Assembly (NCBI RefSeq): GCF_016026235.1
Contig: NZ_CP065613.1
Strand: one strand, 5' to 3'
Origin: Escherichia coli
GTDB lineage: Bacteria; Pseudomonadota; Gammaproteobacteria; Enterobacterales; Enterobacteriaceae
DNA length: 64,000 bases
Shown piece after piece: positions 49,224-52,173 of this stretch. The notes below the pieces were generated by a model. That model was not told the origin of the DNA. It saw nothing but the letters and a program-made list of their open reading frames with translations, and did not search any database. Each line of letters begins with the position of its first letter. Position 1 is the first letter of the stretch. Position numbers and translations under genes: made by a program.

Positions 49224-49231
49224 CCTTTTAT

Positions 49232-49468
49232 TTAGCGCTTACCTTCCGCCAGCAGCGGCGGAATGCTCGGCACCATTGGCGCGTCATCAATATCTTTCTG
49301 CGTCATGCGGAACGCTTCGGGATAATGTTCGCGGCTGGTGCGGCGTAGCGGTTCGGTATCGCGCCAGGTATAAAGGCAATGCTGGCACTGATATACCGTC
49401 CAGACATCTTTCACCGGCGATTTCGCCATCACTTCAATCTGTTCATCGGCACAACGTGGACAAATCAT
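49232..49468 (-). CDS. ecdD: Small subunit of UbiD/UbiX-type aromatic acid decarboxylase (78 aa, Cys-rich)
   Basis: MICPRCADEQIE...CQHC; last gene of the three-gene operon; symbol by analogy with O157 annotation. Confidence 0.7.
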   Translation of the reverse strand: MICPRCADEQIEVMAKSPVKDVWTVYQCQHCLYTWRDTEPLRRTSREHYPEAFRMTQKDIDDAPMVPSIPPLLAEGKR

Positions 49469-49478
49469 CTTGTTCTCC

Positions 49479-50906
49479 TTATTTACGTGCAGCCAGCATA
49501 GCGGTCAGTTTTTCAGCCCAGGCTTTGGTTTCCGGCAAATCCACCACCGGCTGGCTGTAGTGACCACGGTTGTCCGGGGCGACAGGCGTGGTGGCGTCGA
49601 TAATCAGCTTGTCGGTGATCCCCGCCGGGCTTGAGCCAGGGTCGAGTTCCAGCACGGACATATTCGGCAACTGCACCAAATCCCCTGCCGGATTTACTTT
49701 CGAGGAGAGCGCCCACATCACCTGCGGCAGGTTGAACGGGTCAACGTCTTCATCGACCATAATCACCATCTTTACGTAGCCCAGACCGTGCGGCGTGGTC
49801 ATCGCACGCAGGCCCACCGCGCGGGCAAAGCCGCCGTAGCGTTTTTTGGTGGAGATAATCGCCAGCAGGCCGTGGGTGTACATGGCGTTTACCGCCTGCA
49901 CTTCCGGGAACTCGGCTTTCAGTTGTTGATACAGCGGTACGCAGGTGGCTGGCCCCATCAGGTAGTCGATTTCGGTCCACGGCATGCCGAGGTACAGCGA
50001 TTCGAAAATCGGCCTGGTGCGGTAAGAGACTTTATCGATGCGCACCACGGTCATGTTGCGCCCACCGGAGTAGTGCCCGGTAAACTCACCGAACGGCCCT
50101 TCGATTTCGCGTTTACGGCTTTCGATAACCCCTTCGAGGATCACTTCTGAACCCCACGGCACATCAAAACCGGTCAGCGGGGCGGTGGCGATCGGGTACG
50201 GGCTTTCACGCAGCGCGCCTGCCATTTCATACTCAGACTGATCGTATTTCAGCGGCGTGGCCCCCATCAGCGTGATGATCGGATCGTTACCGAGCGTGAT
50301 CGCAATCGGCAGATCTTCACCGCGCTCTTCTGCTTTATGCAGATGCAGGGCGATATCGTGCATCGGCACCGGTTGCAGGCCGAGCTTACGCTTGCCCTTC
50401 ACTTCCATGCGGTAGATGCCGACGTTCTGCTTGCCGAAGTTATCTGGGTCGAGCGGATCGCGGGAAACCACGCAGGCTTTGTCGAGATAGAAACCGCCAT
50501 CGCCATCGTTTAAACGAAACAGCGGCAGGATATCGAACAGGTTAATCTCTTCGCCATCGACGGTGTTCTGCGCCCAGGCTGGATTGGCGCGGCGCTCCGG
50601 GGCAATCGGGAAGTTATCCCAGCGGCGGATAAACTCATCAATCTGTTTTTTAACCGGGGTGTTTGGCGGCAGGCCCAAGGAAATCGCGTGGTTCTGCCAG
50701 GAACCGATGGTATTCATCGCCACGCGGGCATCGGTAAAACCGCGAATATTATCAAACCACAGCGCCGGTGCACCATCGCCGATACGCCCGGTGGCGTTGG
50801 CAGCGGCAGCCAGATCCGGTTCCGCGTTCACCTCTTCGCTGATTTTCAGTAACTGGCCGTGGTCATCAAGCGCCTGTAAAAAGCTGCGTAAATCATCAAA
50901 TGCCAT
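49479..50906 (-). CDS. ecdC: UbiD-family (prFMN-dependent) aromatic acid decarboxylase (475 aa)
   Basis: UbiD-like N-terminus MAFDDLRSFLQALDDHGQLLKI; absent from K-12 at this locus. Confidence 0.85.
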   Translation of the reverse strand: MAFDDLRSFLQALDDHGQLLKISEEVNAEPDLAAAANATGRIGDGAPALWFDNIRGFTDARVAMNTIGSWQNHAISLGLPPNTPVKKQIDEFIRRWDNFPIAPERRANPAWAQNTVDGEEINLFDILPLFRLNDGDGGFYLDKACVVSRDPLDPDNFGKQNVGIYRMEVKGKRKLGLQPVPMHDIALHLHKAEERGEDLPIAITLGNDPIITLMGATPLKYDQSEYEMAGALRESPYPIATAPLTGFDVPWGSEVILEGVIESRKREIEGPFGEFTGHYSGGRNMTVVRIDKVSYRTRPIFESLYLGMPWTEIDYLMGPATCVPLYQQLKAEFPEVQAVNAMYTHGLLAIISTKKRYGGFARAVGLRAMTTPHGLGYVKMVIMVDEDVDPFNLPQVMWALSSKVNPAGDLVQLPNMSVLELDPGSSPAGITDKLIIDATTPVAPDNRGHYSQPVVDLPETKAWAEKLTAMLAARK

Positions 50907-51499
50907 TATTCATTCTCCTGAGAAAAATTCCGGGCCTGCGGCAATCCTTGCCAGCGCCTGGCGTGGGGATGTTCGAGGCCAAATTGATCCAGCACGCGGG
51001 CTACCACATGGTGGACAATGTCATCTACCGTTTCGGGATGGTTATAAAAGGCAGGCATCGGCGGCACCATCGCCACGCCCATGCGTGAAAGTGCGAGCAT
51101 ATTTTCGAGATGGATGGTGCTAAGCGGCATTTCACGCGGTACCAGCACCAGTTTGCGGCCTTCTTTGAGCACGACGTCCGCCGCGCGCCCTACCAGGCCA
51201 TCGGCGTAACCGGCACGGATACCGGCGAGCGTTTTCATACTGCACGGAATAACGATCATGCCGTCGGTACGAAAGGAACCTGAGGAGATGGTCGCCGCCT
51301 GATCCGCCGGGTTATGGCTGAAGTCTGCGAGGGCAGCAACATCGCGGGCGCTGTAAGGCGTTTCCAGTTCAATGGTGGTTTTCGCCCACTTCGACATCAC
51401 CAGATGAGTCTCGACATTCGGCATCTCCCGCAGCGCTTGCAGTAATGCCACACCAAGAGGCGCACCGGTAGCCCCTGTCATCCCGACGATCAGTTTCAT
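50906..51499 (-). CDS. ecdB: UbiX-like flavin prenyltransferase, Pad1-type (197 aa)
   Basis: MKLIVGMTGATGAPLGVALLQAL UbiX signature; 1-nt overlap with the UbiD gene. Confidence 0.85.
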   Translation of the reverse strand: MKLIVGMTGATGAPLGVALLQALREMPNVETHLVMSKWAKTTIELETPYSARDVAALADFSHNPADQAATISSGSFRTDGMIVIPCSMKTLAGIRAGYADGLVGRAADVVLKEGRKLVLVPREMPLSTIHLENMLALSRMGVAMVPPMPAFYNHPETVDDIVHHVVARVLDQFGLEHPHARRWQGLPQARNFSQENE

Positions 51500-51516
51500 T
51501 GCTTATCCTCTTAATT

Positions 51517-51530
51517 GTTCGTATACGAAC
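51517..51530. promoter_or_regulatory. Perfect 14-bp palindrome gttcgtatacgaac in the divergent intergenic region; candidate operator
   Basis: Lies 18 nt upstream of the UbiX-like start and 116 nt upstream of the MarR-like start. Confidence 0.4.
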
Positions 51531-51645
51531 GTTATTATTAACATACTCCTTCATTTCCACAGCGGCAAGGATTGAAAAGTAACAACATCTTCTTCGTCAC
51601 TAAAAAACCGCTATGATAGCGACAGAGAATTAGCCCGGAGTTTAC

Positions 51646-52053
51646 ATGGCGTTACGAAATAAAGCGTTCCATCAGTTACGACAGCTTTTTCAGCAGCACA
51701 CGGCTCGCTGGCAGCACGAGTTACCTGACCTGACCAAACCACAGTACGCGGTGATGCGCGCCATTGCTGATAAACCTGGTATTGAACAGGTGGCACTGAT
51801 AGAAGCAGCAGTCAGCACCAAAGCAACGCTAGCAGAAATGTTGGCAAGAATGGAAAATCGTGGCTTAGTCAGACGTGAACATGACGTCGCTGACAAGCGG
51901 CGACGCTTTGTCTGGCTGACTGCCGAAGGAGAAAAGCTACTTGCTGCGGCGATACCTATTGGTGACAGCGTGGATGAGGAATTTTTGGGGCGTTTGAGTG
52001 GAGAAGAGCAGGAGCTGTTTATGCAGCTGGTGCGCAAGATGATGAACGCATAG
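51646..52053 (+). CDS. MarR/SlyA-family transcriptional regulator (135 aa)
   Basis: Winged-helix region QYAVMRAIADKPGIEQVALIEAAVSTKATLAEMLARMENRGLVRR; divergent from the decarboxylase operon. Confidence 0.8.
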   Translation: MALRNKAFHQLRQLFQQHTARWQHELPDLTKPQYAVMRAIADKPGIEQVALIEAAVSTKATLAEMLARMENRGLVRREHDVADKRRRFVWLTAEGEKLLAAAIPIGDSVDEEFLGRLSGEEQELFMQLVRKMMNA

Positions 52054-52120
52054 GGGGCAAATTTCCGGATGCGACGCTATCGCGTCTTATCCAGACTACA
52101 AATACACCGACTCACCAACC

Positions 52121-52156
52121 GAAAGAAAAAAGGCCAGCCTCGCTTGAGACTGGCCT
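52121..52156 (-). terminator. rpoS intrinsic terminator
   Basis: Minus-strand hairpin aggccag...ctggccu followed by UUUUUUCUUUC, 18 nt past the rpoS stop. Confidence 0.7.
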
Positions 52157-52173
52157 TTCTGACAGATGCTTAC

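Follow-up and report, generated by a model that had tools for sequence, protein, structure and literature searches.

Organization of the ygbN–rpoS interval

The analysed window is a stretch of 64,000 nucleotides of Escherichia coli DNA, in which the whole intergenic span between ygbN and rpoS covers positions 49,224–52,173. Four genes were found in this span in the list of open reading frames (ORFs), together occupying 49,232–52,053 (Table 1). Three of them, hadB, hadC and hadD, are co-directional on the minus strand, tightly linked and arranged in the order B–C–D: the TAA stop codon of hadB overlaps the ATG of hadC (TAATG), and hadC and hadD are separated by a gap of 10 nt. The fourth gene, hosA, is divergent from them, whereas ygbN, which forms the left flank, is convergent with the decarboxylase operon. 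This layout, with three minus-strand genes and a divergent MarR-type gene of the listed protein lengths, had been given in the original prediction and agrees exactly with the ORF list. All four reading frames are full length. A REP-like extragenic palindrome follows hosA, and its tail motif occurs at 52,086 and twice elsewhere in the window.

Table 1 Genes, regulatory elements and boundaries of the ygbN–rpoS interval in the window.
Feature	Position	Strand	Basis
ygbN (o454), GntP-family transporter	47859..49223	+	ORF list; annotated ygbN in near-identical genome
Scar of 30-bp deletion between two GACCTT direct repeats	49222..49232		Comparison with L001 and L002
hadD/ecdD/kpdD-type small subunit, 78 aa	49232..49468	-	NCBIfam VdcD, ShdD match, motifs
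Segment absent from K-12-type genomes, 2895 bp	49233..52127		Comparison with K-12-type genome
hadC/ecdC/kpdC-type UbiD-family prFMN-dependent decarboxylase subunit, 475 aa	49479..50906	-	NCBIfam VdcC, ShVdcC alignment
hadB/ecdB/Pad1, UbiX-family flavin prenyltransferase, 197 aa	50906..51499	-	PDB 1SBZ, NCBIfam VdcB
HosA operator GTTCGTATACGAAC, perfect 14-bp palindrome	51517..51530		Sequence and published oligonucleotides
Predicted hadB promoter	51540..51568	-	Read from sequence; TTG and TA columns conserved across genera
Predicted hosA promoter -10 (TATGAT)	51612..51617	+	Sequence; cross-genus conservation
hosA, MarR-family repressor sensing 4-hydroxybenzoate, 135 aa	51646..52053	+	PDB 8AGA/8PQ4
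REP-like extragenic palindrome downstream of hosA	52064..52099	+	Sequence ...CCGGATGCGACGCTATCGCGTCTTATCCAGACTAC
rpoS intrinsic terminator	52127..52160	-	Terminator scan; junction comparison
rpoS, interrupted by in-frame TGA	52174..53166	-	ORF list, sequence

Identity of the HadBCD subunits

HadB is identical at 196 of 197 positions to the O157:H7 Pad1/UbiX-like protein of known structure (PDB 1SBZ), and it was assigned to the UbiX family by the NCBIfam model ubiX_pad with 246 bits (cut-off 109). When the curated NCBIfam cut-offs of the decarboxylase models were applied, all three subunits scored above them: HadB reached 312 bits with VdcB (cut-off 290), HadC 791 bits with VdcC (cut-off 650) and HadD 121 bits with VdcD (cut-off 30). 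The NCBIfam family name covers "hydroxyarylic acids" in general. HadC is 54% identical to ShVdcC of PDB 7AE4 (E = 2e-160), and its R166, E269, E274 and L421 align with R168, E273, E278 and L425 of that protein, indicating that the catalytic residues of the UbiD family are in place. HadD matches ShdD of the same entry (E = 3e-11). Its four cysteines fall in two CXXC motifs, CPRC (residues 3–6) and CQHC (residues 28–31), which form a zinc ribbon and account for the earlier description of this protein as Cys-rich; the tail of HadD is proline-rich. The structure matches and the family cut-offs thus agree in placing the genes in an operon of the bsdBCD/vdcBCD type with UbiX-like, UbiD-like and small subunits, as had been proposed.

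HosA and its operator

The divergent gene, initially assigned to the MarR/SlyA family, encodes a near-identical copy of the "Transcriptional regulator HosA" of PDB 8AGA and 8PQ4, with 131 of 134 residues the same and the substitutions A81V, V98L and A119G. Residues H9, R12, H18 and D110 are all present, and H9, R12 and D110 are published ligand contacts. According to the literature on HosA of strain UMN026, the protein binds 4-hydroxybenzoate (4-HBA) with a KD of 4.7 μM, its site lies downstream of the transcription start, and 4-HBA releases HosA and induces the operon.

Consistently, a HosA operator lies between hosA and hadB and precedes the start codon of hadB by 18 nt. Its core TTCGTATACGAA and the flanks agree with the synthetic oligonucleotides used as HosA binding sites (PMC6261655, supplement), and the operator was recovered with at most one mismatch in all 76 of 76 related loci. 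The predicted hadB promoter comprises a -35 element TTGCCG (51,563–51,568), a 17-nt spacer and a -10 element TATGTT (51,540–51,545). The operator begins 9 nt downstream of this -10. The two hexamers are weak, with 8 of 12 consensus matches, and were placed by eye and by conservation across genera. A consensus promoter scan of 49,100–52,300 returned no match, the predicted hadB promoter lying under its threshold. On the hosA side, the predicted -10 lies inside the palindrome CGCTATGATAGCG, and a ATCATAGC/ATGATAGC block at this -10 is conserved among Enterobacteriaceae in a cross-genus alignment.

Collectively, we are highly confident that the ygbN–rpoS stretch holds a characterised E. coli system, the hydroxyarylic-acid decarboxylase operon hadBCD (ecdBCD) and its repressor HosA, which senses 4-hydroxybenzoate. 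The system is also named EcdBCD, KpdBCD and Pad1/YclC/YclD.

Proposed mechanism and substrate

By analogy with the published systems, HosA–HadBCD very probably constitutes an operon that is derepressed by the HosA ligand and encodes a reversible, non-oxidative, prFMN-dependent decarboxylase for 4-hydroxybenzoate and related p-hydroxyarylic acids. Bound to the 14-bp palindrome immediately after the predicted hadB promoter, a HosA dimer would block transcription, and binding of 4-hydroxybenzoate would free HosA from the DNA, after which hadB, hadC and hadD would be transcribed as a single unit. HadB, as a UbiX-type flavin prenyltransferase, would make prenylated FMN, with which the UbiD-type HadC and its R-E-E residues would convert 4-hydroxybenzoate to phenol and CO2. 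The zinc-ribbon protein HadD would bind HadC and hold the catalytic loops in their active shape. Supporting this role, VdcC needs VdcD for its activity, and the effect of VdcD is allosteric (PMC8379154). The ligand, the repression, the substrate and the subunit roles in this scheme are those reported for near-identical or orthologous proteins and would carry over to the present ones by analogy. We infer the promoter position, the expression of the operon in this strain and its physiological benefit, the removal of toxic phenolic acids.

The substrate had been left open in the original prediction, but published work largely answers this question, as 4-hydroxybenzoate appears there as both inducer and substrate: it is the ligand of HosA, and phenol was reportedly formed from it by a lysate with KpdBCD of K. 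pneumoniae (Lupa 2005, as cited in PMC6424909). For the E. coli enzyme, the range of substrates would follow, by analogy, from the HosA ligand and the orthologues. A role other than 4-hydroxybenzoate removal, such as decarboxylation of another phenolic acid (vanillate, protocatechuate or gallate) or the reverse carboxylation of phenol in the anoxic, high-CO2 gut, is unlikely. In its favour, VdcCD enzymes accept several p-hydroxy acids in a reversible reaction (PMC8379154), the protocatechuate decarboxylase AroY is enhanced by B and D proteins from Enterobacter and Klebsiella, and the NCBIfam name is a broad one. However, the reported response of HosA to 4-HBA as the operon inducer and the phenol formed by KpdBCD in the work cited above both point to 4-hydroxybenzoate, and the ORFs of the locus include no partner kinase or phosphatase like those of phenylphosphate carboxylases.

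Distribution among E. coli genomes

Among 5426 complete E. coli genomes, 2377 (~44%) carry at least 80% of the query, whereas K-12-type genomes match its two flanks only, amounting to 26% of the query. Indeed, K-12 had been expected to pass directly from ygbN to rpoS, and in the K-12-type genome L002 (NZ_CP062241.1) the 8 bp GTGCACAG stand in place of the 2895-bp segment. This comparison of the flanks, which the original prediction had suggested for defining the junctions, gave the limits of the absent segment listed in Table 1; the right boundary, at the rpoS terminator, is common to the window and the K-12-type genomes.

The segment had also been matched to the polymorphic mutS–rpoS segment of O157:H7-like strains. 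The 2.9-kb segment is indeed the same one, and its polymorphism was first reported in O157:H7 (LeClerc 1999, as cited in PMC4209514). However, the overall arrangement differs, since O157-type genomes such as L003 lack ygbI–ygbN and have pphB joined directly to the D gene, a junction detected in at least 401 genomes. A locus of O157:H7 type was rejected for the window because the window has ygbN. Its ygbN-positive layout is "pattern IV", typified by EPEC E2348/69 (PMC4209514), and is the commoner type among carriers. In B2-type strains, the hadBCD–hosA block is replaced by other genes.

A probably ancestral block lost from the K-12 lineage

The interval had been described as an accessory insert, a reading that has the direction of the change wrong. 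The block adjoins rpoS in Citrobacter, Klebsiella, Enterobacter, Kluyvera, Kosakonia, Salmonella and other genera. The order nlpD–rpoS–hosA/hadBCD is kept in the first five of these as well as in Atlantibacter, Franconibacter and Mangrovibacter, while in Salmonella and Phytobacter the block is inverted and still adjacent to rpoS. Consistently, the synonymous divergence (dS) of hadC is 0.75–1.0, compared with 0.4–1.2 for the flanking rpoS and nlpD across the same pairs of genomes, and a dN/dS of ~0.017 indicates strong purifying selection on hadC overall. The rpoS-adjacent synteny across genera and the dS values similar to those of the flanking genes suggest that the hadBCD–hosA block is an ancestral enterobacterial one, most likely deleted in the K-12 lineage.

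That the segment is instead a recently and horizontally acquired accessory island is very unlikely. Its patchy carriage (2377 of 5426 genomes), its G+C content of 0.56–0.60 compared with 0.50–0.53 in the flanks, a feature often read as a sign of foreign origin, the mosaic and recombinogenic nature of the mutS–rpoS region (PMC4209514) and a 2024 preprint in which hosA entered pathogenic E. coli from Shigella would all fit an island. Among the characters of a genomic island, however, only the raised G+C is found here: the ORF list and the junction comparison revealed no integrase, transposase, tRNA or flanking direct repeats at the segment junctions, the same gene order is found beside rpoS in many genera, and hadC has diverged at synonymous sites to a degree like that of the core genes on either side. 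We therefore rejected a recent island. Homologous recombination between E. coli lineages may be involved, and would redistribute an old allele without bringing in a new island.

A deleted terminator hairpin and an rpoS nonsense codon

Compared with L001 and L002, a 30-bp deletion in the window removed the bidirectional terminator hairpin common to ygbN and hadD, so that the stop codons of these two genes are now 8 nt apart. The hairpin in L001 has folding energies of −17.3 and −18.7 kcal/mol for its two strands (z about −5), whereas folding of the window at the deletion site gave no structure above shuffles. The terminator scan missed the hairpin in L001, where folding showed it clearly, probably because A/T tracts lengthen the stem and the loop and tail are too short for the rules of the scan. 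The deletion junction was detected in 8 of the 5426 genomes, which include both carriers and K-12-type genomes, and nearly all other carriers keep the hairpin. Loss of the hairpin could disturb expression of the operon via convergent read-through. In a more speculative scenario, which we consider unlikely, the deletion arises repeatedly between the GACCTT repeats and could run the ygbN and hadBCD transcripts together, coupling a sugar-acid transporter gene and the phenolic-acid decarboxylase operon by antisense interference. A second part of this scenario is that an ancestral two-operator HosA control was reduced to one operator in Escherichia, Citrobacter and Salmonella, a reduction that may change inducibility or autoregulation.

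The adjacent rpoS carries an in-frame TGA at 52,627–52,629, a change of CGA to TGA at codon 180 (counted from MSQNTL), and the same nonsense allele was present in 1 of the 5426 genomes. The closest genome, FDAARGOS_943, is 99.9% identical; besides the hairpin and the rpoS lesion, an insertion sequence (IS) in ygbM and a short segment of the hyc region distinguish the two sequences. It is most improbable that the locus is silent or decaying in this strain as part of a lineage-wide gene erosion, as the rpoS nonsense codon, the deleted hairpin and the IS-rich neighbourhood with several pseudogenes in the closest genome might suggest, given the four reading frames, which are full length and above the family cut-offs, intact catalytic, zinc-binding and ligand-contact residues, a perfect HosA operator and the strong purifying selection on HadC overall.

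Significance

As to the identity of the operon, nothing here is new: the genes, the B and HosA structures, the HosA ligand and operator and the strain polymorphism are all published, and the locus carries little weight as a discovery. Its value lies in annotation, as the names hadB/ecdB, hadC/ecdC, hadD/ecdD and hosA can be applied and the locus assigned to the ygbN-positive "pattern IV" of the o454–nlpD region. The block is better regarded as an ancestral trait of enterobacteria that K-12 has lost than as a pathogen-specific acquisition. With carriage at ~44%, the species would therefore split by the ability to turn 4-hydroxybenzoate, including that from hydrolysed parabens, into phenol, a split that bears on studies of how gut bacteria produce phenol.

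Comparison with known systems

The closest counterpart is HosA–HadBCD of E. coli UMN026 and EPEC E2348/69 (Roy & Ranjan 2016; structures 8AGA and 8PQ4), which has the same locus, operator and operator flanks, the same divergent layout and the same B–C–D order. The window differs from it by the three HosA substitutions, the 30-bp hairpin deletion and the truncated rpoS alongside. Pad1/EcdB–EcdC–EcdD of O157:H7 (1SBZ) comprises the same four genes and has the same right junction at the rpoS terminator, while the window keeps ygbI–ygbN where the O157 type joins pphB to the D gene.

The vanillate and 4-hydroxybenzoate decarboxylases ShVdcCD, BsdBCD and VdcBCD (7AE4; PMC8379154) share the three-subunit design and the R/E/E/L residues in C, and the D subunit of ShVdcCD has a zinc ribbon with two CXXC motifs and a proline-rich tail, as in HadD. 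However, the C subunits are only 54% identical, and one of the three published C–D salt bridges of ShVdcCD is not conserved, D173 of ShVdcC corresponding to G171 and R12 of ShVdcD to E12. The regulator also differs, Bacillus using the LysR-type BsdA and not a MarR-type repressor.

KpdBCD of Klebsiella pneumoniae and EcdBCD of Enterobacter cloacae are orthologues at the same rpoS-adjacent site, with the same HosA-type regulator and operator. In the sampled species of these two genera, HadC is ~97% identical. A second operator-like copy, lacking in Escherichia, Citrobacter and Salmonella, lies ~56 bp upstream in the Klebsiella and Enterobacter loci, several of which also contain ~3 kb of additional sequence separating rpoS from the regulator gene.

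Organization and components of the hosA/hadBCD locus

The original prediction placed a ~2.9-kb accessory insert between ygbN and rpoS at 49224–52173, which is precisely the ygbN–rpoS intergenic span. The ORF list bore out its three co-directional minus-strand genes and divergent regulator, which correspond to hadB, hadC and hadD (also named ecdBCD or kpdBCD) and hosA. The hadB stop codon TAA overlaps the hadC ATG (TAATG), and the 10-nt gap between hadC and hadD contains GGAG; the overlap and the short gap indicate a single compact transcription unit. A REP-like extragenic palindrome (…CCGGATGCGACGCTATCGCGTCTTATCCAGACTAC) lies at 52064–52099 between hosA and the rpoS terminator, within the segment missing from K-12-type genomes.

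Genes of the ygbN–rpoS region (from the ORF list)
Gene	Product	Position	Strand
ygbN		47859–49223	+
hadD	78 aa	49232–49468	-
hadC	475 aa	49479–50906	-
hadB	197 aa	50906–51499	-
hosA	135 aa	51646–52053	+
rpoS		52174–53166	-

The predicted UbiX/UbiD family assignment was correct, as all three proteins exceeded the curated NCBIfam cut-offs for VdcB (312 bits, cut-off 290), VdcC (791, cut-off 650) and VdcD (121, cut-off 30). The suggested comparison with O157:H7 showed that HadB is identical to the UbiX-like Pad1 of that strain at 196 of 197 residues (PDB 1SBZ). HadC shares 54% identity over 465 aligned residues with ShVdcC, the C subunit of the solved VdcCD complex (7AE4), and HadC R166, E269, E274 and L421 align with R168, E273, E278 and L425, the catalytic residues named for ShVdcC (PMC8379154). 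HadD also matches ShdD, the D subunit, and has a proline-rich tail and both CXXC motifs (CPRC 3–6, CQHC 28–31), which bind zinc in the solved structure (PMC8379154). VdcC is nearly inactive without VdcD, an allosteric activator that holds the loops with the E-R-E residues (PMC8379154). Across Enterobacteriaceae genera, HadC (49479–50906 compared with 80 homologous loci, L007–L086) is unusually conserved, with 96–99% amino-acid identity and 88% to a Vibrio protein; HadB and the regulator diverge much faster.

The predicted MarR/SlyA-family regulator proved to be HosA: 131 of 134 residues are identical in the EPEC protein crystallised as 'Transcriptional regulator HosA' (8AGA, 8PQ4 and others). 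The two sequences differ at residues 81, 98 and 119 and share the reported ligand contacts (H9, R12 and D110). As reported in papers that cite Roy & Ranjan 2016, HosA acts from a palindromic site downstream of the transcription start to repress both its own gene and the operon for non-oxidative hydroxyarylic acid decarboxylase, and 4-hydroxybenzoate frees it from DNA to induce the operon; one citing paper gives a KD for 4-HBA of 4.7 µM. A perfect 14-bp palindrome, GTTCGTATACGAAC (51517–51530), precedes the hadB start codon by 18 nt and matches the HosA binding-site oligonucleotides (PMC6261655 supplement; core TTCGTATACGAA, flanks TAATAATAAC...AATTAAGAG). The predicted hadB promoter on the minus strand (51568–51540; TTGCCG, 17 nt, TATGTT) is of a weak sigma-70 type, with the operator ~9 nt downstream of its -10 element. 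This site scored below threshold in a consensus promoter scan, but cross-genus alignment shows conservation of its TTG and TA columns.

Arrangement and evolutionary direction at the rpoS site

The absence of the segment from K-12 was also confirmed. Downstream of ygbN, the K-12-type genome NZ_CP062241.1 has a terminator hairpin, the 8 bases GTGCACAG and the rpoS terminator, and it lacks 2895 bp (window 49233–52127). The segment is carried by 2377 of 5426 complete E. coli genomes; K-12-type genomes gave flank matches only, and B2-type genomes have at the same site an unrelated gene pair (MBL-fold hydrolase and flavodoxin). In NZ_AP026095.1, mutS and rpoS are annotated under one short match, which suggests that at least one E. 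coli genome has lost the whole mutS–rpoS intervening region.

The o454(ygbN)–nlpD region has been sorted into four patterns: I, the O157:H7 type without ygbN; II, K-12; III, the B2 type; and IV, typified by EPEC E2348/69, with ygbN followed by kpdD-kpdC-kpdB and a slyA-like gene (PMC4209514). By gene order, the window belongs to pattern IV, not to the O157 type. An O157-type genome (L003) has pphB immediately adjoining the D gene, whereas the window keeps ygbN. The predicted O157:H7-like match holds for the segment itself but not for the arrangement. The pphB–D junction was found in at least 401 genomes, and therefore most of the 2377 carriers share the window's arrangement.

A HadC scan with one genome per species yielded 80 loci. 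The nlpD-rpoS-hosA/hadBCD order of the window recurs in Escherichia sp., Pseudocitrobacter, Citrobacter, Klebsiella, Kluyvera, Enterobacter, Leclercia, Atlantibacter, Kosakonia, Franconibacter and Mangrovibacter, in some loci with ~3 kb of additional sequence separating rpoS from hosA. The cassette also adjoins rpoS in Salmonella and Phytobacter, but in inverted orientation. Between the window and Citrobacter, Klebsiella, Enterobacter, Salmonella and Kluyvera, hadC dS (0.78–1.0) is similar to that of rpoS (0.41–1.19) and nlpD (0.77–1.16), and hadC dN/dS (~0.017) reflects constraint like that on rpoS. The segment junctions lack mobility genes, tRNA and target repeats. The synteny, the flank-like dS and the junctions indicate that the block is ancestral at the rpoS site and that the K-12 lineage lost it, the reverse of the predicted insertion. 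This reading fits the title 'Gene conservation and loss...' of a 2000 paper by Herbelin et al. The sole 'foreign'-looking feature is the G+C content (0.56–0.60 versus 0.50–0.53 in the flanks). Acquisition of hosA from Shigella, proposed in a 2024 preprint, is not supported by the rpoS-adjacent synteny and dS evidence.

Variation of the module and its control region

The hosA and B, C, D module also occurs away from rpoS, in Pantoea, Rahnella, Erwinia, Leminorella and a Vibrio. All 76 loci holding both regulator and hadC have an operator near the first structural gene that departs from TTCGTRYACGAA by no more than one base. A second operator-like palindrome, ~56–70 bp further upstream and just 5′ of the predicted -35, occurs in 36 of them, including Klebsiella, Enterobacter, Kluyvera, Pantoea and a Vibrio (L009, L016, L019, L020, L066, L069, L082 and others); in Escherichia, Citrobacter and Salmonella the second copy is absent or degenerate. 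At the thresholds used, 13 of the 76 loci had no match to the UbiX-like B protein, and hosA is directly upstream of hadC (Superficieibacter, Pluralibacter, Cedecea, Chimaeribacter, Siccibacter, Rouxiella, some Rahnella, and Erwinia; loci include L045, L055, L056, L065, L067, L072, L075, L076, L078, L080 and L085). Their prFMN presumably comes from the housekeeping UbiX.

A hairpin (AAAAGGTCCGATG..CATCGGACCTTTT) separates ygbN from the D gene in other carriers, and K-12-type genomes have it too. Its folding energies on the two strands are -17.3 and -18.7 kcal/mol (z about -5), and with an A tract on one side and a T tract on the other it has the shape of a bidirectional terminator. In the window (49222–49232) it has been removed by a 30-bp deletion between two GACCTT direct repeats, leaving the convergent ygbN and hadD stop codons 8 nt apart; folding of this junction gave no structure above shuffled controls. 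The same junction occurs in 8 of 5426 genomes (2 other carriers and 6 K-12-type). Neither carrier's protein alleles match those of the other or of the closest genome, FDAARGOS_943 (99.9%); since the deletion is found on differing carrier alleles and on K-12-type backgrounds, it arose more than once.

In rpoS, an in-frame CGA to TGA change at codon 180 (52627–52629, minus strand) splits the gene into 179-aa and 146-aa ORFs; among the 5426 genomes this allele occurs in one, NCTC11151. In FDAARGOS_943, rpoS is instead disrupted by a frameshift. Relative to that genome, the hycC/hycD region of the window is longer by ~75 bases (30143–30218), where FDAARGOS_943 hycC is annotated as partial; an IS5-family element that interrupts ygbM in FDAARGOS_943 is absent from the window (47522–47525).

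Relation to known decarboxylase systems

Every component of the locus is already characterised. Our analysis supplies the proper names (HosA and HadBCD/EcdBCD), the typing as pattern IV rather than O157-type, the evolutionary direction (an ancestral block that K-12 lost) and a literature answer to the substrate question left by the original prediction. The literature points to 4-hydroxybenzoate as the probable substrate, because it is the HosA ligand and inducer and because KpdBCD, ShVdcCD and BsVdcCD act on it. The Klebsiella orthologue KpdBCD converted 4-hydroxybenzoate to phenol in E. coli lysate (Lupa 2005, as cited in PMC6424909). ShVdcCD and BsVdcCD decarboxylate both vanillate and 4-hydroxybenzoate (PMC8379154); by analogy we infer how broad the substrate range of E. 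coli HadCD may be.
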